A stretch of DNA of 64,000 bases, taken from the NCBI GenBank assembly GCA_963767555.1, contig CAVYEL010000006.1:209178-273177 (forward strand). Direction: 5' to 3'. Numbering within the stretch: position 1 is the stretch's first letter; each line of letters opens with the position of its first letter. The position numbers were made by a program, and so were the translations under genes. The stretch comes from an uncultured Bacteroidaceae bacterium (GTDB taxonomy: Bacteria > Bacteroidota > Bacteroidia > Bacteroidales > SM23-62). The notes beneath the pieces are model-generated. The model did not search any database, was not told the DNA's origin, and saw only the letters and a list, made by a program, of their open reading frames with translations. This document shows positions 8,985 through 59,240 of this stretch, in pieces.

Positions 8985-10217
8985 TTAATTGCCGAATTCA
9001 AAGCCAAGCGTAAAACGCAATGTGTTGGCCAGGGGGTTCTGCTGCTTTACCGGGATCAGATAGGAGAAATCAAGTGAAAACACATTCAGCCTGAGTCCCA
9101 TACCCACGGTGAAATACTTGCGGTTACCCTTGGTTTCGTGCTCATGGAAATATCCTCCCCTGATGGCGAATTGTTTACGGTACCAGTATTCCATGCCGAT
9201 GCTGTAAGTAATTTCATGAACCTCTTCACGCCAGACGCTTCTGCTGCCGTCATCCATAACCACACCTGGTGCATCATAAAAAGACTGGAACATGCCGACA
9301 GGGACCGCAACATATGGATTTTTCCCGTATGCAATGACCTGGTTGCCTTCACTGTCCCTTATTGGGGCTCCTATACTGTCAGTGGCCCAGACCGGAGGCG
9401 TTGGCACCAGTAATTTGTTGACATCAGCCATTATTGAGATGGAGTTGTAATCATCCATGTTTATCGTCAATGCCCCACCAAGTCTCATATTTATGGGAAG
9501 GAATGATTTCTCCTGGTCAGCAGTATAAGATACTTTATTACCCATATTGGCTATCTGTATGCCCAGTCCCAATATAGCATCCTTATTTCCCAATCTCAGG
9601 TCAGGTCTGCGGTAATAAAAACCCAGATCACCGGCAATGGCCATGGCAGCTTTCGATTCACCACCCCCGACTGATTGTCCACCTGTAAGGTCAGAACGGA
9701 TGAAACGGAATACAATACCTCCGGAAAAATAATCTGTCAGCAGCCTTGAATATCCGGCATCAATGGCAAATTCATTGGGTACATAAATTCCCTGGGGTGT
9801 ACCGTAATTATCTGTAAATATTATTTGTCCAAGTGAAAAATACCGCAGTGCCGCACTGACTACCTGCTTGTCATCGATTTTATAGAAACCGGCCAGGTAG
9901 GCAAGGTTGATATCATTGATCAGCCTTCTCAGCCATGGTGTATAAGAAAGGGCAACACCTCCCTGACTTTCCATGAATGGATATTTGGCCGAATTCCAGT
10001 ATTGTGAATTTATATCAGGTTCACTGGCAACCCCAACATCACCCATTCCACCTGCCCTTGAATCGGGCGTGATGGTCATGAATGGTACCGCTGTTTGTAT
10101 GGCATTGAGCTGGGGCCCGCTGGGAGCAGTTCCGTTCTGGGCTACTGTGTAACCTCCTGAAACAAAGAAAAACAGAACTATCTGCAGACAAATACTTCTA
10201 ATCGATACAAACTTCAT
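8985..10217 (-). CDS. porV: type IX secretion system outer-membrane protein PorV (LptO)
   Basis: Intact 410 aa with a signal peptide and the PFMTITPDSRAGGMGDVGVAS motif. Beta-barrel-like sequence ending in F. Lies immediately downstream of porU. Confidence 0.85.
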   Translation of the reverse strand: MKFVSIRSICLQIVLFFFVSGGYTVAQNGTAPSGPQLNAIQTAVPFMTITPDSRAGGMGDVGVASEPDINSQYWNSAKYPFMESQGGVALSYTPWLRRLINDINLAYLAGFYKIDDKQVVSAALRYFSLGQIIFTDNYGTPQGIYVPNEFAIDAGYSRLLTDYFSGGIVFRFIRSDLTGGQSVGGGESKAAMAIAGDLGFYYRRPDLRLGNKDAILGLGIQIANMGNKVSYTADQEKSFLPINMRLGGALTINMDDYNSISIMADVNKLLVPTPPVWATDSIGAPIRDSEGNQVIAYGKNPYVAVPVGMFQSFYDAPGVVMDDGSRSVWREEVHEITYSIGMEYWYRKQFAIRGGYFHEHETKGNRKYFTVGMGLRLNVFSLDFSYLIPVKQQNPLANTLRFTLGFEFGN

Positions 10218-10273
10218 TACATTGATTTAAAGCGAAAACAAAGATAAATTAAATTTCCTATCTAACGTTTATT

Positions 10274-13200
10274 CTAATTTAATATTACAAGCTTTTCAAA
10301 TTTTTCAGCAGTTTGTCCGAGGGAGGTCCTGACTTTGACCCTGTAAATATATACTCCACGGCCAATTTTGCTGCCAAAATCATCGAGTCCGTCCCAGTCA
10401 ATGGGTGCACTCCTGTATCCGGTTGAGGTAACATGTTGTTCAATGGTTTTAACAAGCTTTCCTGAGACGGTAAATACCTGGACCAGGACGTCCATATCCA
10501 TATCCGGCTGGTTGTGTTCAAAGAAGAACTGTGTATGAGTGGTAAATGGATTGGGGTAATTCAGCACATGTTTCAGTACAAGGTCCGATTCTGTATTGAC
10601 TACAAATTCAATGTACTCTTCAGATGAGTTATTGTATACATCCCAGACCTTGACTTTCAGGTGGTGCTGGCCTGCTTCCAGGCTTTTCAGGGGGTATCTT
10701 ATCTTTCCGCTCTGGTAGGAATCGGTATCTGCTTCATAAAAATCATTCAGCACAATGGTCTGGTTTGTTTGCTGGTCAACGATGGCCGTAAGATCATGTC
10801 CGATCCCGCTGCCTATGGTATTGATCCCGTTGCTGTCACTGACATATACCAGCAATTGGGGATCTGCATCGGTCATGCCTCCGAAGACGAAATTTTCATC
10901 ATTCATGAATATTCTGATCTCGGGCCCATCTGAATCATCGGCTATCGAATCGGCAGATCCGCCAATGATGACCTGCTCTGATGAACCACTGGCATCCTCT
11001 GAGTTGTCGGCGGCATAAAAGCTTAATTTGCCATAATCATAGTTATAGGAAATGTCTTTGGGTACAATGAACTTAACCGAGAAATCGCCGCCTTTGACAG
11101 AGGCCTTGCCTTTATATAGTATCCGGTCGCGCAGGTTGAAAGTCATCACGGGATCACCATCATTGGAAAGGGTTTTTATTTCTGATTTTTTGTCATAGAC
11201 GGTCGGGTAGATGATCCCGTTGAAACGCTGGCATGGGGTTGCCCAGTTCATCCTCCACCCTTCCGGTTATGGTAACCTTCCCGAGGGCTTTCAGGGTATC
11301 TGTTGCCTGAGTGATATCGGTTCCGTTCACGGTCAGTACCCGTATCCTGTTTTTCGGGTATGCCAGTACAGCAGCCGGATCACCCAGGAGGGTGAAATTC
11401 CGTTTATTGATCCCTGCCGAGGTGCTGTTTTTTGTCAGCCGCATCACATCCCCCAGCCGGTAGTGCCGGTTCTGGCCGTCAAGGGTGAAAACATGCTGGT
11501 AGAAACGTTCATTCAGTGCATGGTTGGGACCCGCATAAACCAGCCTGGTTGTGCTGAACAGGGCAATTCCCCCGCCATCAGGGTTCAGGAATACCAGTTC
11601 ACCGGCGGAGGTATGCTCATAATCGTCGAAACGGCTGAATTCACAGGTGGCGGTCATAAAGAGGGGCAGTTTATCACTGGTTCTGCCAGGCAACGATATC
11701 ATTGATCGTGAGGATCCTTTCATGTGCCAGGCCGTTTTCTCCGCCATGCCCGGTATAATTGAGGATGAGCGCCCCTTTGTTGACACGCTGGTTCAACGCC
11801 TCGTTTACATCCGGGTACCTGTTCCCGGAAGGGGTGGATTGCTGGGGATAAGCATCAAGATATATCTTCCCGATGGAAAAACTGGGATAATTGGTTTCAA
11901 CATAATTTGCCAGTTCGTCGGCCTGCCTCATATGTAAGTTATAATCCTGGTCGTCACCTATAAAACAGATCGTATTCCGCCAGTCCCCCATTTTATCCAG
12001 CTGGTCATAGGAAATGGTCTTGTTCATGGCATCGCGGGCCTGCATCTGGGAGGATACCGGGAAACGTCCAATACCGATATCCATCAGTCCCGTGTGATCC
12101 ACCCTCGTTATCATCCAGCAATCCGAAAAAATCATCTGTTACAAAGGAGGCTACCGGGGAGAGGGAATTGGCTGACTGGTAGGTGAGGATAAAATTGGTG
12201 TTATTCTCATCTGTTCCCTTGTTATGGTATGATCCGTCCCCGTACAGGAGTACATATTTTGGCATATCTTCTTCGGTAGCGGCCCGGTCATAGAGCATTT
12301 TCAGGAAATCACGGATGGCACTTACATCCGGTTTCCCGGATGAGAACTCATTATATATCTGTCCGGGTGTCACCACTACCGTGTCAAGCCCATCGCGATC
12401 ATGCCTGTGAGCTGCCAGTGATCTGGCGGATGAGATAAAATCCGGATGGCTGATGATGACATAATTCCTGGCCTGCAGTCCATGCAGGTTCTGGTTGGGA
12501 ACGGGCCCCACATCGTCTCCTTCCAGGATGGGCGAAAGTCCCCTGCCCGGTGAAAGCGATAAACTCTTTGAGGCTGTCAGTATTGGTGGTAAATTTTAGT
12601 GTATTGCCTTCCGCGTTGGTGTTCATGATCCTGGCATTGGAAGGATGGGTGATGTCCCATACCATGGCACCGGGAGCATCTGCGATCTGGAATTCTGAGA
12701 TATTCCCCGGTCCGAATGATCTCTGGTCACGGAAGATCAGGCTGGAGGAGGTCTAGGCTGAGCTGGGATCTGGCATTCAGGGTAATGAAATTGAGCCAGG
12801 CCTGTGCAGAGGCCGAATTTTTATTGTACCGCATGGTGATGGCACTGACATCAGCGGTCGGGTTAAATGAGAGGATCTCATCATCTGGCTGTGCATATGG
12901 CAGGACTTCGGAAGAAAGGCTGGTTCCGGACATTTGCAAGTTTCCAATACTTACCTCGTTGGCAGATACCTGGATACTGGTGGTTGCTGATGCCCGGGCG
13001 ACAGCATTGATCCTGACCTTCACGGGTTCGGTCAGCAGGATATCCGCCCCGTCCAGGGGGAAGGTTTGTTCCGTTACAATGTCAAAATGCTCACCATACC
13101 ATTCCTGTCCCGATCCAAGCAGGTTTATATCATCCAGTTCATGGTGGCGGATCTCATCATACTGCGTTACTGTTCTATTGGCCGGACCCGGGGGTGATGC

Positions 13201-14095
13201 TGCCATCTGCATCTGTTTGCCGGCACCCGGACCATCGGTCAGGTAATAATATGAGAAAGAAGCATAGTCATGGACGGTCCGGTTAAAGAATTGTGTTGAC
13301 CCATTGTAGGTCCATATATCCGGTCCCTGTCCATAGAAAAGTATATAATCCCCTGCGTTAAACACCCCGTCGCTTCCTTTCTCAAAATACACGGCATTTT
13401 CGAGCAGATCGTCATCGCGGGAGTGCGAATTCATAACTGGCAGCATGCCACCGCCATTGCCAAATACCTTTACATTGGCCGGATTTGAAATGCCCATCTC
13501 AGACAGCTGCTCCCAGGTCAGATGGTAGATCCCGTCCTCTTCCACTTTGACCCGTACCCAGTTACCGCTGGCCAATACTGACTGGGTGGCATATTGCCGG
13601 CAGGGATGCCTGCATGCTTTTCATGGGTGTGGCACGGGGGATCAGGCGGATCCCGAAAGAAGTAAGCATTTCCACCTGTCCGGTTCGGGCATTTTTTCGA
13701 AGGGGGATGATATTTACCTGCAGGTATTTTTCTTTCCTGAGTGTGGCCACCTGACTTTCTGCATGGACCGCGGAAGGAATGCTGTCCAAGTTATCAACAT
13801 TCCGTATCAGCGAGATATCAATGGCCTGAAAGACCTGGTTATAAATATCAATCTCATACTCGTAATTATTATCTATTTTTAGATTTTCATAAAAAATTGG
13901 TAATAAAGTATTTAGCGAGTAAGTAGCATTTTTGAAATGGAGAACATCCCTGTTCTTATTCTCTACCCGCATACTTTTTACCGGGGACCACTGCAGGCTT
14001 CGCACTCCCTGGTCTTGCTGACCGGACAGGGATGCTGGCAGCACAAAAAGAAATATGCTCAGGATGTATGTATGACAAAAACGGCTTGAAGGCAT
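10274..14095 (-). CDS. porU: type IX secretion C-terminal signal peptidase PorU (peptidase C25-like), about 6 apparent frameshifts
   Basis: Seven collinear ORF pieces. His/Cys dyad contexts NYTGHGG and MTATCEFS are present, along with SGNWVRVKV...GIYHLTWEQL and a C-terminal T9SS CTD-like module (VLNYPNPFT...). porV is adjacent. Confidence 0.85.
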
Positions 14096-16980: not shown

Positions 16981-18282
16981 ATGAAGATAGAGGCACTATA
17001 TGAAATTTACAGATCGAATCCGAAGGTTGTGACGGATTCGAGGAATGCCAGTGGAGGGATCCCTTTTTTTTGGGCTGAGGGGAGAACGTTTCAACGGGAG
17101 CCTTTATGCCAAGGATGCGCTGAGTGGGGGATCTTCTTTTGCTGTAGTAGATGATCCGTCTGTGGTCCTGGATGAGAGATATATCCTGGTAGAGAACAGC
17201 CTGGAAACCTTGCAGGAACTGGCCACCTATCATCGAAACCAACTGAGTATCCCCCTGATAGCCATCACTGGATCCAATGGCAAGACTACCACGAAAGAAC
17301 TAACGGCCAGGATCCTGTTAACACAATATTCTGTACAGGCCACCAGCGGAAACCTGAACAATCATATTGGTGTACCGCTGACCCTGCTGGGAATCGATGA
17401 TTCAGCCGAAATGGGGATCATTGAAATGGGGGCAAACCATACCGGAGAGATTGCCAGGTTGTGCAGGATAGCCATGCCGGATTATCGGTTTGATCACCAA
17501 TATTGGGATGGCGCACCTTGAGGGTTTTGGCTCCCTGGAAGGGGTAATGAAGGCTAAGAAGGAGCTGTATGATTATCTTGATGAGAATGGGGGACTGGTA
17601 TTCATCAATGAGCAGGATAAAGTATTAAGGGGCATGTTACAGGATTTTGAAGGAGGAGTAATCTGGTATGGAGGCTCGGGTGAATCTGTCATCACAGGGG
17701 AAGTGGTAGAAGCCGATCCCCAGCTAAGGATACACCTGGATATCAGAGGATATGGAATGCTGGAGGTAGAAACCTGCCTGGTCGGATCCTATAATCTTGA
17801 AAATATTGTTGCTGCAGCATCTATCGGGCTGCATTTCGGGATCAATCCGGGAAATATCAAAAATGCGATCCAGCATTACTGCACGGATAATAACCGATCC
17901 CAGCAGTTGAATACCGATCACAATGTATTAATTCTTGATGCCTATAACGCAAATCCAACCAGCATGCGGGCAGCCATTGAAAATTTCCTGAGTATGCACC
18001 ATCCTGATAAATCGGTTATCCTGGGTGATATGCTGGAACTGGGTGAGGCCACAGGGGCGGCTCACAGGGAGATTGTTGATCTTCTGGAAACTGCTGGATT
18101 CAGGGAAATTATTACTGGTGGGCGCTTTTTTCTCAAATGCTGAAGTGCCCGGATCTTACCATGTATTTTCAACCGTGGCTGAATGTGCCAACTGGCTTGA
18201 GGAGCATCCATTGCGTGACAGAATGATACTGTTGAAGGGGTCTCGTGGGATAGGTCTGGAAAAACTTACAGGGATGCTCTGA
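16981..18282 (+). CDS. murF: UDP-N-acetylmuramoyl-tripeptide--D-alanyl-D-alanine ligase, about 3 apparent frameshifts
   Basis: ATG 16981 gives MKIEALYEIYRSNPKVVTDSRNA. Collinear pieces 17045-17521, 17490-18143 and 18025-18282 carry the P-loop GSNGKTTTKE, IIEMGANHTGEI, LDAYNANPTSM and C-terminal LLKGSRGIGLEK. Confidence 0.85.
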
Positions 18283-25766: not shown

Positions 25767-26291
25767 ATGAAGGAATCTATGAATCCTGTAATTGACGCAA
25801 TACTAAAGAGAAGGAGTATCAGGAAATACAGTGGAAAAACTGTTAATAAGTCCGATATTCATCTCCTGTTGAAAGCCGGGATGTATGCCCCTTCCGCCAG
25901 AAATGAGCAACCATGGCATTTCGTTGTCATTGATGACCGTGGACTTCTCAACCGGATCCGTGAGGTCCATCCTTATGCTTCCATGCTTTCAGATGCGGCA
26001 TTGGCCATCCTGGTATGCGGGGATGAAAACCTGGAACTCAGCAAAGGTTACTGGCCTGTGGATTGTTCCGCGGCCACGCAAAATATCCTGCTGGCGGCGC
26101 ATGCAATTGGACTGGGAGCAGTTTGGCTGGGTGTTTATCCAAGGCAGGAGAGGCAATCTGCTATCAACGAGATCTTTAAGCTGCCATCACATGTCCATCC
26201 ATTCTCACTTATATCCATCGGTCATCCGGCTGAAGAAAAAGCTGTCCCGGACCGATTCAGGGAAGACCGGATCCGTTGGAATGAATGGTAA
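25767..26291 (+). CDS. nitroreductase family protein
   Basis: ILKRRSIRKY...APSARNEQPWHFVVI...GLGAVWLG motifs. ATG 25767 is preferred over GTG 25761. Confidence 0.8.
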   Translation: MKESMNPVIDAILKRRSIRKYSGKTVNKSDIHLLLKAGMYAPSARNEQPWHFVVIDDRGLLNRIREVHPYASMLSDAALAILVCGDENLELSKGYWPVDCSAATQNILLAAHAIGLGAVWLGVYPRQERQSAINEIFKLPSHVHPFSLISIGHPAEEKAVPDRFREDRIRWNEW

Positions 26292-27601
26292 AGAATTGGA
26301 TTACCAGGATGCCATAGCATTTTTGTTTGACCGACTGCCCATGTACCAGCGGGTAGGAAAGTCTGCCTATAAATCAAACCTGGATACCACACTGGCATTG
26401 GATGAGTATTTTGGTCATCCACACAGGACATTCAGGAGCATTCACATTGCCGGTACCAATGGAAAGGGATCTGTTGCCCATATGATTTCTTCCATACTGC
26501 AGTGTGCCGGATACCGGGTCGGCTTATATACCTCGCCACACCTGACAGATTTTCGTGAGAGGATACGGATAGATGGGAAGATGATACCGGAAGTGAGGGT
26601 TACGGAATTTGTAGAGCAACACAGGGAGATACTGGAGAAACTACACCCCTCCTTCTTTGAGATGACGGTAGCCATGGCTTTTGAATATTTTTCCAGGGAA
26701 GCGGTAGATCTTGCGGTTGTGGAAACAGGGATGGGAGGTCGTCTGGATTCTACCAATATCATCCGGCCGATTGTGTCTGTGATCACCAATATCGGATTTG
26801 ACCACAACCAGTTCCTGGGTGATACCATTTATAAAATTGCTGTGGAAAAGGCGGGCATCATAAAAAGTGGCATCCCTGTTGTAATCGGAGAAACACAGGA
26901 GGAAGCCCGGCTTGTATTTTCCAGAATGGCCAGGGAGAAAGGATGTACCATAACCTATGCTGATCAGGAGATCAGGGTTGACTACTCTACCCAGAGCCTG
27001 CAGGGCAAACAGATCATGCACTTATCCCGGACTGAAGGGCATATAATGGAATCGCTTGAGACCGACCTGAAGGGACTATACCAGCAAAAGAATGTTATCA
27101 CTGTACTGGCGGTTATGGAGCTGCCTAACGACAATTGGTATAAGCATACAGGAAAAGGATGTAAGGAAGGGACTTGCCCATACACTGGATATGACCGGAC
27201 TGAAGGGCCGTTGGGAGATCATTGGTAACAATCCCCTGATAATATGTGACACCGGCCATAATAGAGAGGGTGTAATGGAAGTGATGAAACAGATCCGCCA
27301 GATTCCCTGGAAAAAGATGCATTTTGTACTGGGACTGGTGGATGATAAGGATCCAGGCAAAATCCTTGAGCAATTACCGGTCGAAGCTTATTATTATTTT
27401 ACCCAATCCAGCGTTCCCAGGGCCATGGACAGAGAGAAACTGGCAGCTGAAGGTTTGCGTTTCGGCCTCTATGGACAGATTTGCCCAACTCCTCAAAAAG
27501 CTCTTAAGATTGCCCTTTCCAAAGCAGATCCGAGAGACCTGATCTTTGTAGGTGGCAGTACCTTCGTTGTGGCAGAGGTGTTGGAAAAACCGTATCTTTG
27601 A
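26281..27601 (+). CDS. folC: bifunctional folylpolyglutamate synthase/dihydrofolate synthase, one apparent frameshift near 27100-27230
   Basis: ATG 26281 gives MNGKELDYQDAIAFLFDRLPMYQRVG. Contains HIAGTNGKGS (P-loop) and ETGMGGRLDSTN. The C-terminus continues in ORF 27092-27601. The long upstream extension of ORF 25885-27228 overlaps the nitroreductase and is not coding. Confidence 0.85.
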
Positions 27602-32730: not shown

Positions 32731-32805
32731 GGGCGATTAGCTCAGCTGGTTCAGAGCACCTGCCTTACAAGCAGGGGGTCACTGGTTCGAATCCAGTATC
32801 GCCCA
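32731..32805 (+). tRNA. tRNA-Val (anticodon TAC)
   Basis: Hand-folded cloverleaf: acceptor gggcgat/atcgccc, D stem gctc/gagc, anticodon stem cctgc/gcagg with loop cttacaa, T stem actgg/ccagt with loop ttcgaat, discriminator A. No encoded CCA. Confidence 0.9.
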
Positions 32806-32806
32806 C
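32790..32806. repeat. att-like 17-mer copy A (3' end of tRNA-Val)
   Basis: aatccagtatcgcccac. Identical at 32969-32985 and 16/17 identical at 39982-39998. Confidence 0.85.
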
Positions 32807-32817
32807 AATCAAAATCA

Positions 32818-32846
32818 ATCCGATCGGTATTCCGGTCGGGTTTTTT
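32818..32846 (+). terminator. hairpin terminator after tRNA-Val
   Basis: atccgatcgg-tatt-ccggtcgggt stem (two G-U pairs) followed by T6. A near-identical hairpin lies at 41631-41665. Confidence 0.55.
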
Positions 32847-32968
32847 AATATTCAAATCCATGCAAACTTGTTTGCAGTTGGATTTGGATATGAAAACCAG
32901 GCCAAGCCTGTGGTTGATTTTATTGTTAAGACCCCCGGAAGGATCACGACCGAGTTTGCGAGGTCGCT

Positions 32969-32985
32969 AATCCAGTATCGCCCAC
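32969..32985. repeat. att-like 17-mer copy B, inside a degenerate tRNA 3'-half
   Basis: aatccagtatcgcccac preceded by gcgaggtcgct, which resembles gcagggggtcactggttcg of the tRNA. Shares the extra 5' gct with copy C. Confidence 0.8.
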
Positions 32986-33069
32986 CCAGATAACCAGATA
33001 GTTATAGAGATTATTGAACCGTCTGGTTACAATGCGACCTAATGTTAGGCACTGGCCTTTTTCCTTATC

Positions 33070-34348
33070 TTAATTAAATTCTTTGGTTCTTAAATATTTA
33101 TTAATGTATTGTATCTTTTCTTGAGGAATATCAATCTCAGCTGCTATTTTAGACCATTGATTCACTGCTGTTATAACTTCATCTAAAATTGATTGGCTTT
33201 TTTGATTCCAAATTTTTTAGCAAAACCCAATAAATCGTCTTTAGTAAAATTATCATATTTACCATTAATTGATGATTGGTGTACATTTGTCCATGTTCCA
33301 CCTGGACTATATGAAAAACAAATGTCATATGCTGGAGATATTTGCCATTTTCCATCCTTATTCATTAAGAATGAGAAGTTCTTTACATGGTCATCATGAT
33401 TTCTTGCAACGACATTAAATAACATGCGTCTATATTGCTGTTCAAATTGTTTGTATGAAAGTTGAAGCCTTTTCATAACCCTGAATAAAGTTTCATAATT
33501 GCTAGCTTTTTGAATTTTATAATCTATGCCTGCTAAAGCACTGAATGTTTGCATATGAATTTTTTCACCATTATCTGTTCGGTCAAATCGTTTCGTTAAA
33601 AAGTGAAATCTTCCATTTTCTTCATGCAAAGTACTTTCTGAGATTTCAATCCCGGCTTCTTTTGCTAATTTGTAATAAGCAAATTCTATTTTGCCCATAC
33701 CTTCACTTTCTCCTAAGGTTTGTTCATTTGCTCCATCAATTTTCAGTAGCCAATACGAATAACCTTTGGTTGCATGATATCGCCGGGTCTTATTTCTTTA
33801 ATTTTTTTGTTTTGATCTCTTTTAATAGCAATCAAAGCTTTAGCTCTTGCCCCTCCAACGGATGTTCCTATTCTTAATATTTCAGTAAGACTATCTTTAT
33901 CCAAATCAGAAAAGGAAGTTTCTTTCTTATTTTCTAAAACGCTTTTTGCAACTTGTATATTTCACTAATATCAACAAGACTATTATCATCTTCTCTGTGA
34001 TTAGCTGGTATATACTCCAATGCTCCCATTCCTCTTTTACCCACATAAGTTAATCTGTCAACCGGATTAATGTCATCGATTGACAATTCTCTTTGTTTTA
34101 GCCATTCTTTCATCATGACATTACCAAAATCATCTGGCATTGAATCAGATAATAAATAAGGCAAATTGTGAAAGTTGATAGTGATCTCTGTTTGTTTCAA
34201 ATATTCTTTCTTCCGTTGGCATTATAATCGGAGAAGGTTCTATGACTTTAACTATTTCACTATTATATTGAAAAGTAGAACTTCTCTTATCAGAATTCCA
34301 TTCTGCCGTTCCTAATAATTGACCATACAACTTAACTTCTACTATCAT
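33070..34348 (-). pseudogene. hipA: HipA-family serine/threonine kinase toxin, about 4 apparent frameshifts
   Basis: Five collinear pieces read: MIVEVKLYGQLLGTAEWNSD; LPYLLSDSMPDDFGN; GTSVGGARAKALIA; WLLKIDG...GKIEFAYYKLAKEAGI. The catalytic loop NHDDHVKNFSF and SPAYDICFS are present. The C-terminus ILDEVITAVNQWSKIAAEIDIP ends at 33070. Confidence 0.8.
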
Positions 34349-34350
34349 GG

Positions 34351-34668
34351 CTATTTTATTTTTTTAGATGCTCGTTTTCTTTCTGATTTTAATTTCGCTT
34401 TTTCAAATTTTAATTTAAGTTCTAGGTTTTCTCCTACTCTAAATACTGATTCAAAATCTTTTATCCGATTTAATCTTATTAAAATCCTTATTAAACTTTC
34501 AACCGTAGTGGATTTCCCTTGTTCTATCAGGCTAATTGTTGAAACACTTAATCCAACTTCTTCACTCATTTCTTTTTGAGTGAGGTTATGTTGGAGTCGT
34601 ATTTTCTTAAGCCTTTTGCCTATTTCTTTTAATATTTCCTGTTCTGTTAAAAACAACCAATTATCCAT
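34351..34668 (-). CDS. hipB: XRE-family HTH antitoxin HipB-like
   Basis: Intact 105 aa with HTH LKKIRLQHNLTQKEMSEEVGLSVSTISLIEQGK. Its stop is 2 nt upstream of the hipA start. Has a Lys-rich C-terminal tail. Confidence 0.8.
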   Translation of the reverse strand: MDNWLFLTEQEILKEIGKRLKKIRLQHNLTQKEMSEEVGLSVSTISLIEQGKSTTVESLIRILIRLNRIKDFESVFRVGENLELKLKFEKAKLKSERKRASKKIK

Positions 34669-34719: not shown

Positions 34720-34834
34720 ATAACTATTAATATATCATAAGTTAATGCAAATGATAGTAAAATATTTTAACTATTAAAATATTAGTAGATAATGACCGAA
34801 ATCAGCACATAACTATTAATATGTCATAAGTTAT
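34720..34834 (-). promoter_or_regulatory. putative hipBA operator/promoter region with two 25-nt direct repeats
   Basis: ataactattaatatAtcataagtta (34720-34744) and ataactattaatatGtcataagtta (34809-34833) match at 24/25. Each has ataact...agtta(t/a) dyad ends. A partial copy taactattaaaatatt lies at 34768-34783. The region is 52-166 nt upstream of the hipB ATG. Confidence 0.45.
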
Positions 34835-34968
34835 ATGTGATTAGTCATTTTGGCTTGTGCCTGGATGGTCAAGTGTAGATGAAGCGTGTGAAAGTGATAA
34901 CTGATTAGCATAAGCTGCAAAACCCCTGGCTTAGTGACCATTTGTTGATGTCGCCTTTGAAGCCATTG

Positions 34969-34997
34969 AAAAAGCCCGGTCATTGAGCCGGGCTTTT
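34969..34997 (-). terminator. rho-independent terminator downstream of the fibre-like gene
   Basis: agcccgg-N8-ccgggct stem. On the minus strand it is followed by a T5 run, 23 nt after the stop at 35020. Confidence 0.6.
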
Positions 34998-35019
34998 CGT
35001 AGCTTATAAGGTGGCAATC

Positions 35020-36542
35020 TTAATTAACTTTCGCACCTGAAAAATGGGTATATGCATAATTTGAAGAGGTGTTTCCAGAGACCCGGGCACCAGCATCATT
35101 ACAACTCCCCCATAATTGGGCGGTCTGGCCTGCAGAAAGGTAGAGGGTGATAGAGATACTCACTCCCTGATAAGCTGAACTGGAATAAGCCCATGCACCC
35201 TCATAGTTATTGTTTCCAGCCCTAAGTATAGCATAAATCAGACTTCCTGGAGTCATGTCGATGAAGTATATCACACCATTAAATGAGTATATTCCATCTT
35301 CCGGAGCAGTAAAAGTGTTTGTACTCAGGTTAAAAGCATTTCCCTGGTTTTCCCAAACACTTGCACCAGTGCTGAAATCAACAAGCTTTGAATCAGGGCC
35401 TCCCCAAGTTATAGCTGTGCTTTTCTTTACCTCAAAATAAATTCGATCTTCAGTCAGTGGTTCCCAGGTTGCCAGACCGGTACCATCGGAAGTCAGAACT
35501 TCGCCCTCAGCAGGAGTTCCTCCGGTAATTCTAACCTGTCCAGCTACTTCGAGCGTGGCGCCTGGAGTATCCGTTCCAATCCCGACATTTCCGCCATAAG
35601 GATTCAGATTCAGGTCACCAGCAGTAAAGTTTTGCAATCGAAGATCCTCATCGCCGACATCATACCATAGATAAGCTTTGAAGATATCGTCATCGTACAA
35701 TGACAGGAATATACCTTCCCCGGATGGTGCAGATAAGGATAGCTGTCCCCGGCTGGTGACTGGAGAACCATGCGCATGAATATAGGTCGCCGGGCTGCTG
35801 GTGCCGATGCCAACATTGCCGTATTGTAGTAGATATTGCTGCCTGCTGTCGTCCACTGACTACCAAGGATGGTGGGAGTATCGGTTAAATCGTTGTAACT
35901 GCCACTTGTGGCAACAGTTGCAAATGTTGGTTTGCCAGTGACTTCATTCCAGGTAGGAACATATCCAATGGGTCGGTAGAGTCCATCGTGGTCACCCCAA
36001 CCAAATGCGGTATTCCAGTTTGCAATTAAACCTGATGTAATACCATTCGCAGCATGAGATGTATTCATCCCATCTGAAATTCCATAACCTGCGAGTGTTG
36101 TTGGTTTATTCGTCAAATCTATATAACTACCGCTGAATACATTCCCTGCTGTCTCAGAGTATAAAGCATACGGTACGCTTAATATTTGACTTGTGCCAAT
36201 AATCGTATAGTTTGCTCCACCACTCGGATCCGTTTCGGTTTTAATGTAATACGGTCCACTTGACCAATCAATGGCCGAGAAATCATCACTTGTTGTGCCT
36301 GTTCCAATTTCAATGCTGACCAATCCATTTGCATTTGACTCTGGTGATTGGGTTTCTGCATAAACGACAGTTCCTTCTGCAGAGCCTTGCAAAATACTGA
36401 TTTTCATACCAACAGGAACACTGGTTACAAGGTTATTGCTGTTATTGCGGATTATTGCCTGGTAGCTCATTTTTTCTGGTGACTGGGCGAAGATGCTTGA
36501 TAATAATGCTATGGTTGCGATTAGTGAAAATAACTTTTTCAT
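35020..36542 (-). CDS. secreted fibre-like protein with C-terminal C1q/TNF-like domain, one apparent frameshift near 35822
   Basis: Signal peptide MKKLFSLIATIALLSSIFAQ. N-terminal module MSYQAIIRN...ISILQGS...VYAETQ. Tail-fibre-like YxDLTxKPT and GNVGIGT motifs occur twice each. The C-terminus matches the core of the C1q signature (NQGNAFNLSTNTFTAPEDGIYSF) and ends HFSGAKVN. A GG/GGG indel joins ORFs 35610-36542 and 35020-35856. Confidence 0.6.
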
Positions 36543-36553
36543 TGTTTTGAGAT

Positions 36554-37054
36554 TTATTGGTTTTTAATGATTTTAAATGTTTTGACTACTTCCTGATTGT
36601 TTGTGACTCTCAGAAAATAAGTTGCAGGAGCAAGATGTGCCATTGAAATAGTGGTTTTGATGTCGATCAGTTTTTTACTAATCAAAAGTTTTCCCATCAT
36701 GTTGTAAAGCTGAAAGGACAAGTTTTCGTTTTCAAGGATTTCAACTTCCAAGGTTAGAAGATCAGTTGTAGGATTTGGATAAACCGTACATATTAAATTT
36801 ATGTCTTTGGCTTGTTCAATTCCAACTCCAACTACAACCGAAATCTCGTAAGGTTGTTGTACTCCTTCAGCCACAGAACCATTTGTGCCTGTACTGGTAG
36901 AATAGAATACCTGACCAATGGTATAGCTCACTGAACCACCGCTGCCCGAAGCATTACCCCCTGTGGCTGGAATGGCTTCCTGAGCCTGTAAGTTTACTGT
37001 TAGTCCGATTCCTAACAAGAATACAATACATAGTTTTAATCGTTTTCGTCTCAT
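36554..37054 (-). CDS. small T9SS-secreted protein (type A C-terminal sorting domain)
   Basis: Intact 166 aa with a signal peptide and a GGNASGSGGSVSYTIGQVFY module. The C-terminal Por_Secre_tail-like sequence reads VYPNPTTDLLTLEV...ATYFLRVTNNQEVVKTFKIIKN. Confidence 0.7.
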   Translation of the reverse strand: MRRKRLKLCIVFLLGIGLTVNLQAQEAIPATGGNASGSGGSVSYTIGQVFYSTSTGTNGSVAEGVQQPYEISVVVGVGIEQAKDINLICTVYPNPTTDLLTLEVEILENENLSFQLYNMMGKLLISKKLIDIKTTISMAHLAPATYFLRVTNNQEVVKTFKIIKNQ

Positions 37055-37065
37055 GTTACCTCCTT

Positions 37066-37317
37066 TTAAGAATTTAATTTATGTTGAGTAATAGTAGTGT
37101 CAATCATATTCGGTAAACAGGAAATGGGAGTGGTCCAAACACCACCCCACTTTCTTTTTACCAGCCACCTCGATGGCACAACCAGGGAAATAAAGTGCTT
37201 AAATTCAATGCAGAAACGGATGAACCTGCAACAGGATAAGATGAGTATATAACAATGATAGACAATGCTAACTGCAAATACTGTCTTTGGGAACCATTTT
37301 TTAATCTCTGTTTTCAT
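37066..37317 (-). CDS. hypothetical small membrane protein (possible first gene of the operon)
   Basis: 83-aa ORF with one hydrophobic helix (TVFAVSIVYHCYILILSCC). Its 11-nt gap to the next gene equals the next intergenic gap. No recognisable family. Confidence 0.3.
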   Translation of the reverse strand: MKTEIKKWFPKTVFAVSIVYHCYILILSCCRFIRFCIEFKHFISLVVPSRWLVKRKWGGVWTTPISCLPNMIDTTITQHKLNS

Positions 37318-37563
37318 GACGCTAGACTTAGACTTTGTATAGTGCTAATGTATTGCACAAAAAATCCCTGGTCTAACAGCAATGTATCCAGTTTTGATAA
37401 TTATGTAACGGGATTGTAAAGAATTTCAGAAGGTAGCCATTAATAATACCAACTATATTTGAACTATATATATAGGATTAAGGAATTCGTTTACGCAAGC
37501 GAGCTTGCAGGCATTAGGATACAGCCAGCAGTGGTACAAGTATCCCGATACCCCGGTAAATTG

Positions 37564-38127
37564 TCATTTATAATAATTTATAACCTCTTCCGGACTCTTT
37601 CTGGGGGTTGCTGCCGTGATTGCATCTACACTATTATCAACATTACCAATCCTCAGGACTACCACGGCCTTATAGCCTGAAGGGATCTGAAAACGTTCTT
37701 TATTTTCATTGATATTTCCGGCAGGACTGCCGTATATTCGTGCACCAAGACCAAGTCCGTGTGCGGCTACAAACATACTTTCCGTGGCAAGGCCGCAATC
37801 AAAATCGGGGGTTGTCCCGCTTTCGGATTCCATCCCTGAAATAATAACCAGAACATTGCCGGGAACCACATTATTGATTATCTCCTTCATGACAGAATCC
37901 TTACTGATCACTGTGAACTTCCAGGGCTGTTTGTTCCTGCCACTGGGAGCTTTAATCCCACATCTCAGAACCAGATCGAGTTGCTGATCCGTTACAGGAT
38001 CTGATGAATATATCTTTTCTGAGAATGCCGTTAACAGCGTATTGGTAACACAATTGTCAGTTGTCTGACTGTACAATTCTGAGGTGATACAAATTACGAT
38101 TACGATAAGGGAAAGTATTGTTTTCAT
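37564..38127 (-). CDS. nitroreductase-family protein with N-terminal signal peptide
   Basis: Intact 187 aa. MKTILSLIVIVICITSELYSQ, then APSGRNKQPWKFTVI and GLGLGARIYG nitroreductase motifs. Confidence 0.7.
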   Translation of the reverse strand: MKTILSLIVIVICITSELYSQTTDNCVTNTLLTAFSEKIYSSDPVTDQQLDLVLRCGIKAPSGRNKQPWKFTVISKDSVMKEIINNVVPGNVLVIISGMESESGTTPDFDCGLATESMFVAAHGLGLGARIYGSPAGNINENKERFQIPSGYKAVVVLRIGNVDNSVDAITAATPRKSPEEVINYYK

Positions 38128-38367
38128 GGCTGATCCTATTAAATGATATGTTATATATACTATCCAAAAGATAACGAAAATAATTCATTTATACCCTTCC
38201 CATCCCCAGGAGATCAAAATTGGATTCCAGCATCACCCAAAAAACAAATACAACTCTGAATGGCAACATTTAGGTTTTTTAATTAATGCTCATCCTGGGA
38301 CCACTGGTTAAGTTGAGAATTATGAATTAATTTTAACCATGAAATAATATAGGTGAAAGAAATTGAT

Positions 38368-39975
38368 ATGACATATGATAAAATGATTGCGCAAAAGAAT
38401 ACTAAGATCTTTTTTATATCACTTGGGTTTCTCCTTATGCATGTCCTCGTAAATAGCCAACACCAGCCTTTACTTGTAGTAGAACTGGAAAACACCCAAC
38501 CTCGAAATATTATTTTTATTTTGAGTGATGATCACAGGTATGATTTTATGGGATTTACAGGTGTCTTACCATGGTTGGAAACGCCTGCAATGGATGCACT
38601 GGCCCGGGAGGGGGCATATTTCCCCAATGCATTTGTGACAACATCACTGTGTTCTCCCAGCCGTGCATCAATATTAACCGGGCAGTATAGCCATACACAT
38701 AAAGTAGTGGATAATTCTGCTCCTGCACCCAAAGAATCTGATCTATTTTCCGCAATATCTTCAAACAAAAGGGTATCAAACTTCTTTTTTTGGGAAATGG
38801 CATATGGGAGGCAATACGGATGATCCCCGTCCAGGTTTTGACCATTGGGAAAGCTTCAGGGGACAGGGGGCTTATTATGATCTGACTTTAAATATTAATG
38901 GTGAACATAAAAATTATAATGATTCAATATATACAACTGATCTATTAACAGAACATGCCATTCAATGGCTGAAAGGCAGGGATACCCAAAAACCTTTTTT
39001 TATGTATCTATCCCACAAAGCAGTTCATGGTCGTTACATACCGGCAAAACGGCATTTAGGCAAATATAACGATGTGACGCTTGAATTACCGCCTTCATTT
39101 TTTACTTCCGCACAACCAGTAAAGGGCAAAAGCCATCCGTATGGATATCAGAATTATTTAGGCCCCGATAAAGATCAAATCAAAGAGCCGGCAAGGGATG
39201 AAGACTATTACGGAGAGGGACGGATGCCCGATTGGCAGAAAATGCAGAGAGAAAGCTGGCACGGAGTAGATTATATGTACCATGCACAGCATGTTAATTT
39301 TGAAACCCTAGTAAAAAGATATTGTGAACTGATATTGTCTTTGGACGAAAGCATAGGTAGTATTCTGGAGTACCTGGATAATGAGGGCTTAAGTGAATCA
39401 ACCGTGGTTATATATATGGGAGACAATGGTCACTCATTCGGTGAACACGGATTAATCGACAAACGCCATTTTTATGAGGAGTCGGCTAAAGTTCCATTTT
39501 TAGTGAGGTGTCCAGAAATAATAGACGGAGGACGGGTTATTAAAGAAATGATTCAAAATATAGATGTTGCCCCAACGATATTGGAATTAGCCGGTATTGG
39601 GAAACCGGACCAGATGCAAGGGATGTCAATTGTGCCAATTCTAATAGGAGAAAAGACATACCTGGAGGGATAAAATATTTTATGAATATTATTGGGAAAA
39701 TAATTATCCTCAGACTCCGACAATGCATGGTGTTCGTACGGATAGATATAAACTAATCCGATACCATGGAATCTGGGATACAAATGAATTTTATGATCTT
39801 GAAGAAGACCCTTACGAAATGAATAACCTGATTGCAAGTCCCCGGCATCAGAGTTCTTATTAAGGAACTCACAGATGAAATTTACGATTGGTTGGAAAGC
39901 ACTGGCGGCATGCAAATCCCATTAAAAAGAACGGGACAAAGAGGTGGTGATCATAGAAATCGCGGAGTTTATTAG
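38368..39975 (+). CDS. Cys-type sulfatase, about 3 apparent frameshifts
   Basis: Signal peptide, then [12 protein letters not shown] and the formylglycine motif [12 protein letters not shown], and [12 protein letters not shown]. Collinear pieces are 38353-38823, 38804-39673, [32 protein letters not shown] and a final frame ending at TAG 39973-39975. Confidence 0.8.
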
Positions 39976-51589: not shown

Positions 51590-53179
51590 ATGGGAACAAA
51601 AATTCAGCTCTCAAAAGACAAGGTCAAGTCAAACTACTCAGGTAAGGAACATTATGACCTGGTGATTATTGGTGCGGGGATCAGCGGACTTTCTACAGCA
51701 CTTATGTGGTTAAAGAATACAGAGGGGAAGAAAACACTTATCCTTGAGAAAAACAGTTATGTTGGAGGGTATAGTACGGCTTATCAGAAAGGGGATTATA
51801 TTTTTGAAACAACTCAGCTTTTTCCCGATATAATTGAGATGATGGAGTATCTCGATATAGAGATAAAATTGAAGAGGTTTGAGAAGGATTTTATGAGGCG
51901 TATTGTGGTTCACGGGGATGAGGTGGATGAATACAAAATTCCTTCCGGGGCAGAAAAGTTTACCAGTTATCTTAAAAGCCAGTTTCCTGATGATGCTGAT
52001 AATATTGAGAAACTTATGGCATATTCAGTATCCATGTTCTCACAGGTCAGGAAACTGAAAGTTATTCCAACTCTGGCAGATACATTAGCTACTCTGTTTA
52101 AAGCCCCCAAGGTAATATCAAACCTCAGCCAGACCTATTCCGGCCTGTTGGATAAGTTTAAGATCACAGATCCAAAACTAAGGGAAGTAATGGAGACATT
52201 CACTTCCTTTTCAGGGGTGCCTTCCGACCGTGCATCAGCCATATACGCTACAGGAGCTATGCTTTCCTCGATGACCCGGACCTTCCGGCCCTATGGGTAT
52301 TTTGATGAGTTTCCGGCAACCATGGCCAGCTTATTCCAGGAAAGGGGAGGGGAGATACGCGTAAATGCCGAAGTTGAACAGATTGTTGTTGAGGAGGGTA
52401 AAGTATACGGGGTTAAGGTTAGGGGGGATGATGGCATGATCAGTGCTGGAACAGTGGTTACAACCATTGATCCGATGGTTGGAATGAGGAAGCTTGTGGG
52501 AGATGAATACCTGGGGGAAAAATATATTGAAAGGCTGAAAAACGTTGTCATGTCAACTTCCTCAATAAATATTGCACTTGGACTAGATGAAAAGATTGAT
52601 CTTGCTGCCATGGATCTTGATTATCCATATAATGTTGTATCAACTGGCCTGGGTACATCGGAAAAACTATTTGACGGATTTATGTCAGGGGGTAATGCTT
52701 TTTCGGAAGATTGCTTTCATGCCGCAGTTATTTGCCCTTCTCTGACTACCGGTGCAAAGAACACGATCACCATTCGATGTACACCGTTTGGTATTGGACT
52801 GTGGCCTGAATGGAGGAAAAATGATCCTGAGAAATACAAAGCAGAGAAAGAAAGATGGGGAGATTTCTTTATCAATATCGCGGAGAAGTATTTCATCCCG
52901 GGTTTAAGCAAACATATCGTCGTTAAGGATATTGCTACACCTGCTACCTTTTCACGTTATTCCGGTTCACCTACCGGAAGCTTATATGATATGGCGTCCA
53001 TCGTAACTCAGTTCGGACCAAAGCGCCTACCATTTAAAACTCCCGTTCGAAATCTTTATCAGCCAAAATTTGCTCATGGCCTTTATGGTAGTATGATGAA
53101 CGGTGTTCAGATGGTTGATCTCTTGCTGGATAGGAAATTTAATAACGGGAATTCCCTCTTCACAGCATCAGTCACTTAA
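51590..53179 (+). CDS. FAD-dependent oxidoreductase of the phytoene desaturase (CrtI-like) family
   Basis: Intact 529 aa with YDLVIIGAGISGLSTA dinucleotide-binding motif. Overall CrtI-like length. Confidence 0.65.
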   Translation: MGTKIQLSKDKVKSNYSGKEHYDLVIIGAGISGLSTALMWLKNTEGKKTLILEKNSYVGGYSTAYQKGDYIFETTQLFPDIIEMMEYLDIEIKLKRFEKDFMRRIVVHGDEVDEYKIPSGAEKFTSYLKSQFPDDADNIEKLMAYSVSMFSQVRKLKVIPTLADTLATLFKAPKVISNLSQTYSGLLDKFKITDPKLREVMETFTSFSGVPSDRASAIYATGAMLSSMTRTFRPYGYFDEFPATMASLFQERGGEIRVNAEVEQIVVEEGKVYGVKVRGDDGMISAGTVVTTIDPMVGMRKLVGDEYLGEKYIERLKNVVMSTSSINIALGLDEKIDLAAMDLDYPYNVVSTGLGTSEKLFDGFMSGGNAFSEDCFHAAVICPSLTTGAKNTITIRCTPFGIGLWPEWRKNDPEKYKAEKERWGDFFINIAEKYFIPGLSKHIVVKDIATPATFSRYSGSPTGSLYDMASIVTQFGPKRLPFKTPVRNLYQPKFAHGLYGSMMNGVQMVDLLLDRKFNNGNSLFTASVT

Positions 53180-54404
53180 TCCCTTTAAATTTGGGATTAG
53201 CCTTTCCTCATCTTTCATTAATTGGTGCCAGTAAACAGGCCTGCCCTCATAAGCTGCAGTCCTTCCCAGGATGGTCACTAAATTACTGGTGACACTTGGT
53301 TCAACGGTAATATTTTCATAATTACCTTCCACGATATTTTTATGGAATGTGGCAATATTAGTAACAGCACCTTCTAAAAAAATACCGGGGGATCTTCCTC
53401 CCCGATAATAGTTATCACCCTTTATCATTACGTTGCCGCCATACTGTGTTTCAAGAACACCTTCAGAACCAAACATCCGGTTGCGGATCCCTTCCGGCGT
53501 GGTGCCGTGTCCCTTAAATTGACGTGAGCTGAAGGTAATACCTACATTGTTGGGATATTGGTAGACAAGTGCAAAATGATCCCAGCTGCTGCCCTGATCG
53601 GTTCTTACTTTATGGCCACCTGTTCCAACAGCATAAACCGGTTTCTCATCCATGATCCAGCTCATCACATCGAGTGTATGTATGTTCTGTTCTGTAATGA
53701 TATCCCCGGAGAGTGCCCGGCTCATTCCCCAGGCCCGTAATTGATTTTCCGGATTTGCAGGATCAGCATCAAGATAAGGCCGCTGATTTGTCCATGGGCT
53801 TCCGGCATGATAACTTGCCTCGCCGAATGCTAATGTTCCCAGACCTCCATCATGCACACGTTTTAAAGCTTCGATAAAGAATTGGTCGGCACGCGTTTGA
53901 AAATCAATTAAAAAGCATAAATTCTTCTGCAGTAGCAGTTTTGCCACTGTCTTCAATGCTTTGACATCCCGGAACATCAACGGCTATGGGTTTTGCGAGA
54001 TATACATGCTTTCCAGCAGCTACTGCCGCCTCGGCCTGTTCAGGATGAAAATACGGTGGGCTCTCAATGACGACTCCGTCCAGATCAATTTCCAGTAATC
54101 TTTTATAGGCTGAAAGCCCGGTGTATCGATTTTTGCTGGCAATATTGAACTTTTCACCAAAGGTATCAACCTGGTCCTGGAAATAATCAGCTGCGCCCAC
54201 GATCTCATAATTCCCATCTTTAATAAATAATTCAGCAATCCATGTGCCTCGTCCCCCGCATCCGATCATTCCGATTTTAATTTTTGAATTGGCATTTGAG
54301 CCGAAAACAAGTTCCGGTTTCATAATTGAAAATGATACAGCAGCTGCACTTGTACCTGCAATAAATTCTCTTCGTGTGAACGGTTTACTTTCTTTCTTTG
54401 ACAT
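53168..54404 (-). CDS. Gfo/Idh/MocA family oxidoreductase with TAT signal, one apparent frameshift near 53930
   Basis: MSKKESKPFTRREFIAGTSAAAV, then IGMIGCGGRG and AKP. The C-terminal domain continues in ORF 53168-53980. Confidence 0.8.
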
Positions 54405-57847: not shown

Positions 57848-59240
57848 TTATTTTGAAACCGACGGTGTGATATTCTGGTTCATTCTGAAAAGATTGGCAG
57901 GATCCCATTTGTTTTTGACTTTAACGAGCCTGTCCCATACATCCCTGGTATAAGCATCCTTCACCCGGGCTGAACCTTCCTCACTTAAAAAATTAACATA
58001 AACCCCTTGACTATAGGGTTTTGTGGCCTCATGGAAATCCCTGGCCCAGCCTATGCATCGACTATCATCTTCAGCATGTCGCCAACGGGTATGGATATTC
58101 AATAAAAATGGGGTATTCCTATGTGGGAATGCGGTAGCTTCGGATTGAATGCGTGCAGGGGCACCCTCCATATGTGGAATAAAAATCTCACATTCCTCAC
58201 CTGGCATTTTCAATGCGTATAGATTAATGACATCGATGCATTCATCATATAAATACTTTATGTGATGAGATTTCCAGTAATTGCGAGCTCCATGCTCCAT
58301 GAAGTCCGTCAAATCCGGATTGCCAGGCTGTCCACGGTTTTAATCCGGATCCATCACCCAGGGTCTCTTTAAAATCGCGGATTGGTTGTATCAGTTTTTC
58401 TCCTTCCTCGGGATCACCCAGCCAGACAAATGGCAAGAGTATCACCATTTTTCCATGAACATCCTCCGGTAAAAAGGGCAGTGGCGGAGCATGACGTACG
58501 ACTATCCAGATCGTCATCTCATCGGGCAGGCTGCGAACATATTCCCTGTGGAATTGCATATATTCTTTCAGGTCATCAAATTTCTTAACAACCGGTCCTG
58601 AATATACCTCCGTCCCAATCTTTGCGGCCTTGAATTCAAAACTGGTTACGATGCCAAAATTTCCTCCACCACCACGAATGGCCCAGAATAGATCCGGATT
58701 CTCAGCATTACTCGCTGTTACGATTTCTCCATTTGCTGTAACCATTTCTGCTGAGATGAGGTTGTCAACAGAAAGTCCATATTTCCTGCTGATCCAGCCA
58801 AACCCTCCACCCAGGGTCAATCCGCCTACACCTGTATGGGATATGATACCTGATGATACGGCCAATCCATGTTTTTGTGTGGCTTCATCTACTGCACCCA
58901 GCAGACAGCCCCCCTGTACCTTCACTGTTTCATTATCGGTATCGATATCAACATCTTGCATCAGGGAAAGGTCAATCATAAGTCCGTCATCACATACGGC
59001 CGTGCCAGCTGAATTATGTCCTCCTCCCTTCACTGCAATCAGCAGATTATTATGCTTCCCGAAATTTACTGCTTCCGCCACATCTTCAACGTTCAGGGAT
59101 TTTACTATGATGGCAGGCTTCCGGTCGAACATGGCATTCCAGATAGCCCTTGATTCATCAAAGTCCGAATCGCCTGGTAAAATAACCTGTCCTTTAATAG
59201 TATTTCTCAATGCTTCAATTATATTCTTTTCCATATTCAT
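57848..59240 (-). CDS. FAD-linked oxidase (PCMH-type FAD-binding domain plus BBE-like C-terminus), one apparent frameshift near 58250-58310
   Basis: PAIIVKSLNVEDV...VKGGGHNSAG...GGLTLGGGFG in ORF 58245-59240. The BBE-like end WDPANLFRMNQNI is in ORF 57848-58312. Confidence 0.8.

Follow-up and report, generated by a model that had tools for sequence, protein, structure and literature searches.

A small type IX secretion substrate encoded directly upstream of a mosaic adhesive trimer-like fibre in Bacteroidota, a candidate adaptor or anchor for the fibre base

Mosaic adhesive trimer (MAT) fibres have so far been known from one predatory bacterium, Bdellovibrio bacteriovorus. The fibres described there (Bd2133, Bd2439, Bd2734 and Bd3182) combine a signal peptide and a conserved beta-rich N-terminal domain (N-domain) of about 130 residues with a stalk and exchangeable C-terminal tips, among them S74 and TNF/C1q-like domains, the latter on Bd2734 and Bd2439 (Caulton et al., 2024; PMC10769870). 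According to the authors, the N-domain, which does not vary, 'would presumably tightly bind a surface element'; the element was left unidentified and the anchor of the fibre base is an open question in that study (PMC10769870). The present analysis concerns a two-gene operon on the minus strand of a 64,000-nucleotide stretch of DNA, called the window below (contig CAVYEL010000006.1 of assembly GCA_963767555.1, positions 209,178 to 273,177), from a sediment Bacteroidales bacterium. The operon encodes a MAT-like fibre of 507 amino acids (aa), obtained by reading through a frameshift, and directly upstream of it a mini-protein of 166 aa with a type A C-terminal domain (CTD) of a type IX secretion system (T9SS). 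Genes of this kind are paired in the same way across the phylum, and the small partner is a concrete candidate, proposed from sequence and gene order, for the surface element of the MAT N-domain in Bacteroidota.

The likeness to the Bdellovibrio fibres comprises the signal peptide followed by a beta-rich N-domain that probably corresponds to theirs, homologous stalks (match to structure 8ond, E 3.5e-13) and exchangeable C-terminal tips that include S74 and TNF/C1q-like domains. In contrast to the roughly 1000 residues of the Bdellovibrio proteins, the fibre described here has 507; its relatives occur in Bacteroidota hosts with a T9SS, have the small T9SS-CTD protein directly upstream in about 90% of cases, score below the cutoff of the MAT profile NF053851 and have no known link to predation. 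Three other systems are comparable to the small partner or to the pair. Type A CTD cargo of the T9SS, such as gingipains and mirolase, shares with the partner a Sec signal peptide (putative in the partner), the type A CTD and the presence of PorU and PorV, but here the passenger amounts to about 65 residues without an enzyme or adhesin domain and is co-encoded with a large protein that lacks a CTD. Type B CTD proteins with operon-encoded PorP/SprF-like anchors likewise have, in Bacteroidota, the gene of a fibre or adhesin at the surface next to that of a dedicated anchoring partner; in these systems it is the large adhesin that has the CTD and the partner is an outer-membrane barrel (PMC9143113), whereas here the CTD resides in the small partner. 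The 'hitchhiker' co-export of the twin-arginine translocation (Tat) pathway, in which, for example in PaoABC, a signal-less subunit is exported in association with a signal-bearing one by a system for folded proteins (PMC4273604), is a mechanistic analogue from a different secretion system; for the T9SS such co-export is hypothetical.

The identity of the fibre emerges from profile searches. The NCBIfam model NF053851 (Bdello_MAT_N, 'mosaic adhesive trimer family chimeric fiber protein') matches residues 11-85 with 40.7 bits (E 2e-10), and 12 of 12 diverse N-domains of the fibre family match it as well (best E 2e-12). All these scores lie between 40.7 and 46 bits, below the curated cutoff of 60, and the coverage is partial (profile positions 3-78 of 162). 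A profile of the fibre family matches the Bd2133 stalk (8ond) with its positions 231-391 and, more weakly, 8ol4 (E 1.6e-3). The stalk contains two YxDL(T)xxP motifs (aa 140 and 216) and two GNVGIGT motifs (aa 242 and 318), the repeats that had already been noticed when the DNA was read from its letters only; modelled as a single chain with AlphaFold2 (AF2), it reaches a predicted local distance difference test (pLDDT) score below 50. Scans with Pfam and NCBIfam found neither a Por_Secre_tail domain nor a CTD of type B or type C in the fibre, whose C-terminus is occupied by the C1q head, and the absence of a CTD noted earlier therefore stands. That first, sequence-only reading had described the operon as uncharacterised, and for the fibre it has to be corrected: the protein is a homologue of the Bdellovibrio MAT fibres.

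The fibre family as a whole is large, with more than 5,657 matching proteins in which N-domain and stalk are constant and the tips vary. C1q-like tips occur next to S74 domains (PF13884, sometimes combined with YadA-like repeats, PF05658), DUF1566/Lcl-like domains (PF07603), Fib_succ_major domains (PF09603) and others. Judged by its domains, the fibre of the window is a short, C1q-tipped new member of the MAT superfamily and an ordinary one as a tip variant, and this membership, an outcome that the first reading had itself named as refuting, lowers the novelty of the fibre itself. In an estuary metatranscriptome, short contigs match positions 34945-36071 at 85-95% identity to the fibre gene, which points to in situ transcription of a related fibre, DNA carry-over being possible; no contigs of the same metatranscriptome were found over the partner or the partner/fibre junction.

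The partner begins with a signal-peptide-like segment, recognised by reading the sequence, that consists of a basic n-region, a hydrophobic helix (residues 2-18 in the AF2 model) and a putative cleavage site between LQA and QEA. Its C-terminal domain scores well above the cutoffs of TIGR04183 (56.5 bits, cutoff 23, E 2e-15) and PF18962 (47.3 bits, cutoff 27, E 2.5e-12), in line with the type A T9SS sorting domain recognised earlier. AF2 predicts a beta-sandwich for the CTD (pLDDT 70-91), which in a Foldseek search resembles the T9SS CTD of mirolase (8qb1), and assigns a pLDDT of 40-53 to the Gly/Ser/Thr-rich N-module. After removal of the signal peptide, this module of about 65 aa is all that the CTD has as a passenger. 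The attachment machinery for such cargo is encoded in the same window, 21-27 kb from the partner gene: an intact PorV (8985-10217, 410 aa, 469 bits) and fragments of the sortase PorU (10274-14095), so that the organism has the means of T9SS attachment. The two genes, PorU in its long form, lie side by side on the minus strand (8985-14095), and PorU is fragmented by frameshifts.

Searches with the whole partner returned 7,599 matches, and the N-module alone is found in 3,021 representatives at 50% identity. Nearly all of these are 159-170 aa long and hold the module at residues 24-87, and this near confinement to an architecture of about 160-170 aa supports a role as partner. Three variants depart from it (P0304, P0306 and P0351), two with tandem N-modules and one with an insert of about 300 aa between module and CTD, from which it follows that the module is able to bear its own passenger. 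Natural fusions between partner and fibre were considered and rejected: the long proteins with a partner module owe their length to inserts, to tandem modules or probably to chimeric gene calls, and no fibre N-domain is fused in them.

How regularly the two genes occur together was determined in one genome per GTDB species, which were scanned with a profile of the fibre N-domain only. The scan gave at least 585 loci. The best 80, from Bacteroidales, Flavobacteriales, Saprospiraceae, Chitinophagaceae, Crocinitomicaceae and others, contain 90 fibre genes. They were scored with our own hidden Markov models (HMMs) of four domains: module and CTD of the partner, N-domain of the fibre, and C1q head. 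A partner lies directly upstream of 67 of these, at a median gap of 12 nt, and ten more stand second to fourth in an array behind a partner-led fibre. Five are too close to a contig end to be assessed, seven have no partner and one has a partial partner. Partner-led operons thus account for 77 of the 85 assessable fibre genes, the strongest result of the analysis. A cultured carrier is Psychroflexus planctonicus CGMCC 1.12931 (L063). In close relatives, a CTD protein of 164 aa precedes the fibre by 13 nt, though the flanking genes differ. The CTD protein had been put forward as the fibre's partner from this one locus, and the conserved gene neighbourhood lends the idea strong support.

The arrangement of the loci is informative about which part of the fibre the partner belongs to. 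With our HMM, none of the 80 genome loci has a C1q head, yet the partner is kept, and it therefore appears to go with the constant base and not with the tip. Several loci consist of one partner followed by two to four tandem fibre genes (L007, 1421-5300; L015; L017; L037; L051; L077; L083). At L007 a single partner precedes up to four fibre genes, an order that suggests that one adaptor serves several fibres. One pair of the Bacteroidota type, including the T9SS CTD partner, was found on a contig of 1728 bp labelled as a Bdellovibrio sp. metagenome-assembled genome (L069, JANOOI010000319.1); this is probably a mis-binned Bacteroidota contig. Full-text literature searches found MAT fibres in the Bdellovibrio context only and nothing on a Bacteroidota counterpart or on this mini-protein family, which is no proof that they are unpublished. 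As far as could be found, the pairing of a MAT-type fibre with a T9SS mini-substrate is undescribed, and it appears mechanistically suggestive.

In one rival explanation the two proteins do not touch. The mini-protein would then be an independent small T9SS cargo, for instance a surface coat peptide or a signal, merely co-regulated with another surface or secreted protein. Small T9SS cargo is common, and the rare variants with tandem modules or a 300-aa insert would also fit an independent function. Simple co-regulation is less easily reconciled with an adjacency that is found for 77 of 85 genes over several Bacteroidota orders at a median distance of 12 nt, with a pair that is kept despite differing flanks, and with an N-module nearly confined to one architecture. 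We regard it as unlikely.

The reading we favour, held with slightly more than even confidence and drawn from gene neighbourhood, is that the mini-protein is a T9SS adaptor or anchor for the constant base of the fibre. In the sequence of events that we infer, the short module of the mini-protein would bind the constant base domain of the fibre, and the CTD would take the mini-protein, perhaps with the fibre bound to it, through the T9SS. PorU would then remove the CTD and attach the module to the cell surface as with other type A cargo, for which CTD cleavage by PorU and surface attachment are established (PMC9143113). The fibre would thereby be displayed base-in and tip-out, and its C1q-like trimeric tip could bind a ligand on other cells or particles, most likely a glycan. 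The low pLDDT of the N-module is as expected, since this piece would fold on its partner.

An N-module that is not confidently folded alone would also suit an assembly factor: a periplasmic chaperone of the fibre base or a template for its trimerisation, in the manner of the assembly proteins of phage tail fibres. The CTD would merely dispose of the mini-protein afterwards, and the fibre would surface by another route, as the Bdellovibrio MATs must, which are displayed without a T9SS (PMC10769870). The tight operon linkage fits this explanation too, and some members of the fibre family use an S74 intramolecular chaperone at the opposite end. A type A CTD, though, would be costly and unusual equipment for a chaperone, and the mini-protein has no homology to known fibre chaperones. 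The position of the partner as the first gene of the operon, with one copy for up to four fibres, fits a common dock as well. An assembly factor is in our estimation improbable, to about the same degree as mere co-regulation.

Several points weigh against an adaptor or anchor. The partner is absent for 7 of the 85 assessable fibre genes, and the N-domains score under the NCBIfam cutoff (40.7-46 against 60 bits). Bdellovibrio MATs reach the surface without a T9SS, and a partner is accordingly not intrinsically needed by the fold (PMC10769870). Literature searches found no report of T9SS co-export of a CTD-less protein. The binding step is deduced from the gene neighbourhood and the trimeric state of the fibre from homology, and a genuine frameshift in the fibre gene would mean that the copy in this genome is dead. 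It is conceivable to extend the adaptor hypothesis further: the module of about 65 residues together with its CTD would be a detachable export-and-anchor adaptor that binds the base of the CTD-less MAT-like fibre in the periplasm, carries it through the T9SS as a hitchhiker and becomes its covalent surface tether after PorU has acted, so that one adaptor gene would suffice for a full set of fibres whose tips are exchangeable, and its product would be the 'surface element' of the MAT N-domain in Bacteroidota. Taken in full, this chain of assumptions is tentative, and we doubt it more than we believe it.

The head of the fibre has a C1q/TNF-like jelly-roll fold according to sequence profiles and structure prediction. 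Pfam C1q (PF00386) matches residues 383-503 with 22.8 bits (E 1.2e-4), just under the gathering score of 23.7; a homologue (P0115) has a precomputed PF00386 match, and the fibre-family profile matches cerebellin-1 at 8e-5. AF2 models the last 143 residues with a pLDDT of about 90. In Foldseek searches, the model superposes on C1q-type domains (Caprin-2, C1QL1-3, cerebellins and C1q itself), with template modelling (TM) scores of 0.82-0.86 for the best matches (Caprin-2 0.86) and root-mean-square deviations (rmsd) of 1.9-2.6 A; single entries are 4ous (TM 0.86, rmsd 1.9 A), 4qpy (0.82-0.84) and the group of 4qpy, 4qqh and 5ybz (0.78-0.84). The C1q head read from the core motif of the sequence is thus confirmed at the level of a predicted fold. 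The head resembles these domains in its predicted fold, in the core motif and in its place at the C-terminal end of a fibre. It differs in being bacterial, in sitting on a beta stalk instead of collagen, in its identity of 18-25% and in a score under the Pfam gathering threshold. TNF/C1q-like tips belong to the known MAT repertoire. Among interchangeable tips of this sort, that of the present gene is a routine case.

Stalk and tip also invite a comparison with phages, since the stalk repeat (...ATVATSGSYNDLTDxPT...) and, in some family members, S74 chaperone tips are shared with phage tail, head and baseplate fibres. On this ground the locus could be the remnant of a tail fibre of a phage, tailocin or contractile injection system (CIS), or a phage-receptor decoy, one of the possible roles that the sequence-only reading had raised, next to cell-cell or host recognition. 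Residues ~116-230, which hold the repeat, are similar to phage proteins of the baseplate (baseplate wedge), of a crAss-like head fibre and of the 'pyocin knob' kind, PHROG matches are present, though weak, and C1q-like tips occur on fibres of extracellular contractile injection systems (PMC12923769). No phage record, however, covers more than 23% of the fibre (range 6-23%, stalk repeat only), and no phage has the full architecture. The N-domain was found in just 2 loci of 2.9 million viral contigs (IMG/VR), compared with the at least 585 loci of the genome scan. Both proteins have putative Sec signals and the context is cellular: the scanned neighbours of the operon are housekeeping or toxin-antitoxin genes, and no phage or CIS genes are among them. 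A phage origin is therefore highly improbable, the least credible of the explanations considered.

The fibre gene of the window is interrupted. Its length from ATG to stop, 1523 nt, cannot be divided by three, and two overlapping open reading frames (ORFs) represent the halves of one gene. At the point where a base is missing, the window reads AATAC/GGCAAT (the slash marks the site) and the relatives read AATTCCGGC or AATTCAGGA; related-strain Logan contigs (records 4 and 22) have one extra base over the same interval. The read-through protein of 507 aa aligns over 100% of its length with intact orthologues of 506-522 aa at 80-92% identity, and the alignment has no break at the junction (...SNIYYNTGNVGIGTSSPATY...). 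The reading as a single protein is valid on account of this end-to-end alignment. The protein of about 507 aa that had been assumed beforehand is therefore supported by its orthologues, with the reservation that it is present only after read-through.

Such interruptions are pervasive in the same 64 kb (6316-7570, 10274-14095, 17045-18143, 25885-27601, 33183-34348, 38353-39673, 53168-54404 and 57848-59240). The split genes encode a urocanase, PorU, two Mur ligases, HipA, a sulfatase, a GFO/IDH oxidoreductase and an FAD/BBE oxidase. PorU (10274-14095) is in at least six pieces, the Mur ligases are those at 17045-18143 and 25885-27601, and the split sulfatase gene adjoins the fibre operon. Essential genes broken at such a density favour indel errors of the assembly over gene decay, and the single-base frameshift of the fibre is most likely an error of this kind, the gene being probably intact in the organism. 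Should the fibre gene be a true pseudogene, the operon would be non-functional in this genome, whatever the family does elsewhere. The deletion of one base does cut the fibre short past the first half of the stalk, and the base call is beyond checking in public sequencing runs, none of which contains this exact strain (the best match shares 20% of words). But frameshifts in two Mur ligases, PorU, urocanase, sulfatase and oxidoreductases within the same 64 kb are unlike a viable genome and like an uncorrected long-read assembly, and both halves of the fibre gene lack any further stop and share 92% identity with an intact orthologue. A genuine pseudogene is thus distinctly improbable.

The operon had been read as three genes, with a small membrane protein of 83 aa at its start. 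This ORF has no Pfam or NCBIfam match, and gene calls on related contigs show nothing at its position. The DNA alignment with the relative L004 has 1-nt indels and a deletion of about 50 nt in the ORF, in related metagenome contigs the ORF is altered by 1-nt indels, located at 37201 and 37258, and by skips that span 76 and 109 nt, and the relatives L001-L003 have unrelated sequence there. The ORF was therefore rejected as a membrane protein gene, and since it is not conserved, the unit consists of two genes. The early observation is nevertheless correct for the most part: re-reading of the sequence reproduced the ORF positions, the gaps of 11 nt each between the 83-aa and 166-aa ORFs and between the 166-aa ORF and the fibre start, and the terminator.

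The region upstream of the partner probably contains a promoter or leader. A non-coding block is common to the window and L004, and its core GATACATTGCTGTTAGA is also present in L001-L003. In about 13 of 67 loci (including L011, L014, L023, L057, L059, L066 and L072), a related motif, GTT[AG]GC[GA]TTCATTGG, lies upstream of the partner gene, 80-104 nt before its start, compared with about one locus in shuffled sequences. The motif is unlike the sigma-70 hexamers that were scanned and may be a dedicated promoter or regulator site. The scan for sigma-70 promoters itself found 11, with 7.5 expected from shuffles, and is not above chance. A GC-rich hairpin (GGGGTGGTG...CCACTCC, 37127-37148, minus strand) lies inside both the 5' leader and the 83-aa ORF; its deletion in L004 makes a conserved role of this element improbable.

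Table 1. Features of the fibre operon and its surroundings, in positions of the window
Feature	Position	Strand	Basis or remark
83-aa ORF	37317..37066	-	ORF list; not conserved as gene
Partner gene, 166 aa	37054..36554	-	ORF list; small type A substrate of the T9SS
Fibre gene, MAT-like, 507 aa after read-through	36542..35020	-	ORFs and intact orthologues
Fibre half-ORFs, overlapping	36542..35610 (310 aa) and 35856..35020 (278 aa)	-	ORF list
Upstream non-coding block common to L004	37413..37240	-	DNA alignment; probable promoter or leader
Motif GTTAGCATTG	37272-37263	-	Within 83-aa ORF / operon 5' leader or promoter region
Partner signal peptide, aa 1-24	37054-36983	-	Cleavage ...LQA/QEA, read from sequence
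Partner Gly/Ser/Thr-rich N-module, aa 25-90	36982-36785	-	Partner gene
Partner type A CTD, aa 91-166	36784-36557	-	TIGR04183, PF18962
Fibre signal peptide, aa 1-19	36542-36486	-	...IFA/QSP, sequence
Fibre constant beta-rich N-domain, aa ~20-135	36485-36138	-	NF053851
Fibre stalk, aa ~136-364	Between N-domain and head	-	8ond match
Frameshift site, one base missing	35820..35821	-	Alignment to four intact relatives
C1q/TNF-like jelly-roll head (tip), aa 365-507	35451-35023	-	Pfam C1q, AF2, Foldseek
Intrinsic terminator-like hairpin AAAGCCCGG-loop-CCGGGCTTT, then T-run	34996..34969	-	Sequence reading and terminator scan

The terminator-like hairpin follows the fibre stop codon at a distance of 24 nt. 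An Rfam scan of 34800-37700 gave just two sub-threshold small RNA matches, both at the terminator, which were taken as chance. Directly downstream of the terminator lies a hipBA toxin-antitoxin islet. A tRNA-Val gene (32731-32806) is followed by a low-GC stretch (31% against about 42%; the two together at window positions 32731-34668), in which a helix-turn-helix (HipB-like) gene occupies 34351-34668 and the gene of a HipA kinase is broken into four ORFs. An ORF for a DDE transposase (PF01609; 30537-31427, minus strand) is situated 1.3 kb from the tRNA-Val gene. The operon had also been assigned to a tRNA islet. This holds loosely, in that tRNA-Val is nearby, but the low-GC DNA is that of the broken hipBA module and not of the fibre operon. 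Membership of the fibre operon in the tRNA-Val islet was rejected: in contrast to hipBA, the operon has a GC content close to that of the DNA around it.

A type of fibre so far seen in one predator thus turns out to be very common in Bacteroidota, with more than 5,600 clusters of proteins and at least 585 loci in species-representative genomes, and stands nearly always behind a dedicated T9SS mini-substrate. This pairing offers a concrete candidate for the fibre anchor. If the CTD-less fibre does need its partner to cross the outer membrane, a mode of co-export would be added to the T9SS. Such a system would also explain how environmental Bacteroidota display interchangeable C1q-like, lectin-like and S74-chaperoned tips, with which they may attach to cells, particles and polysaccharides.

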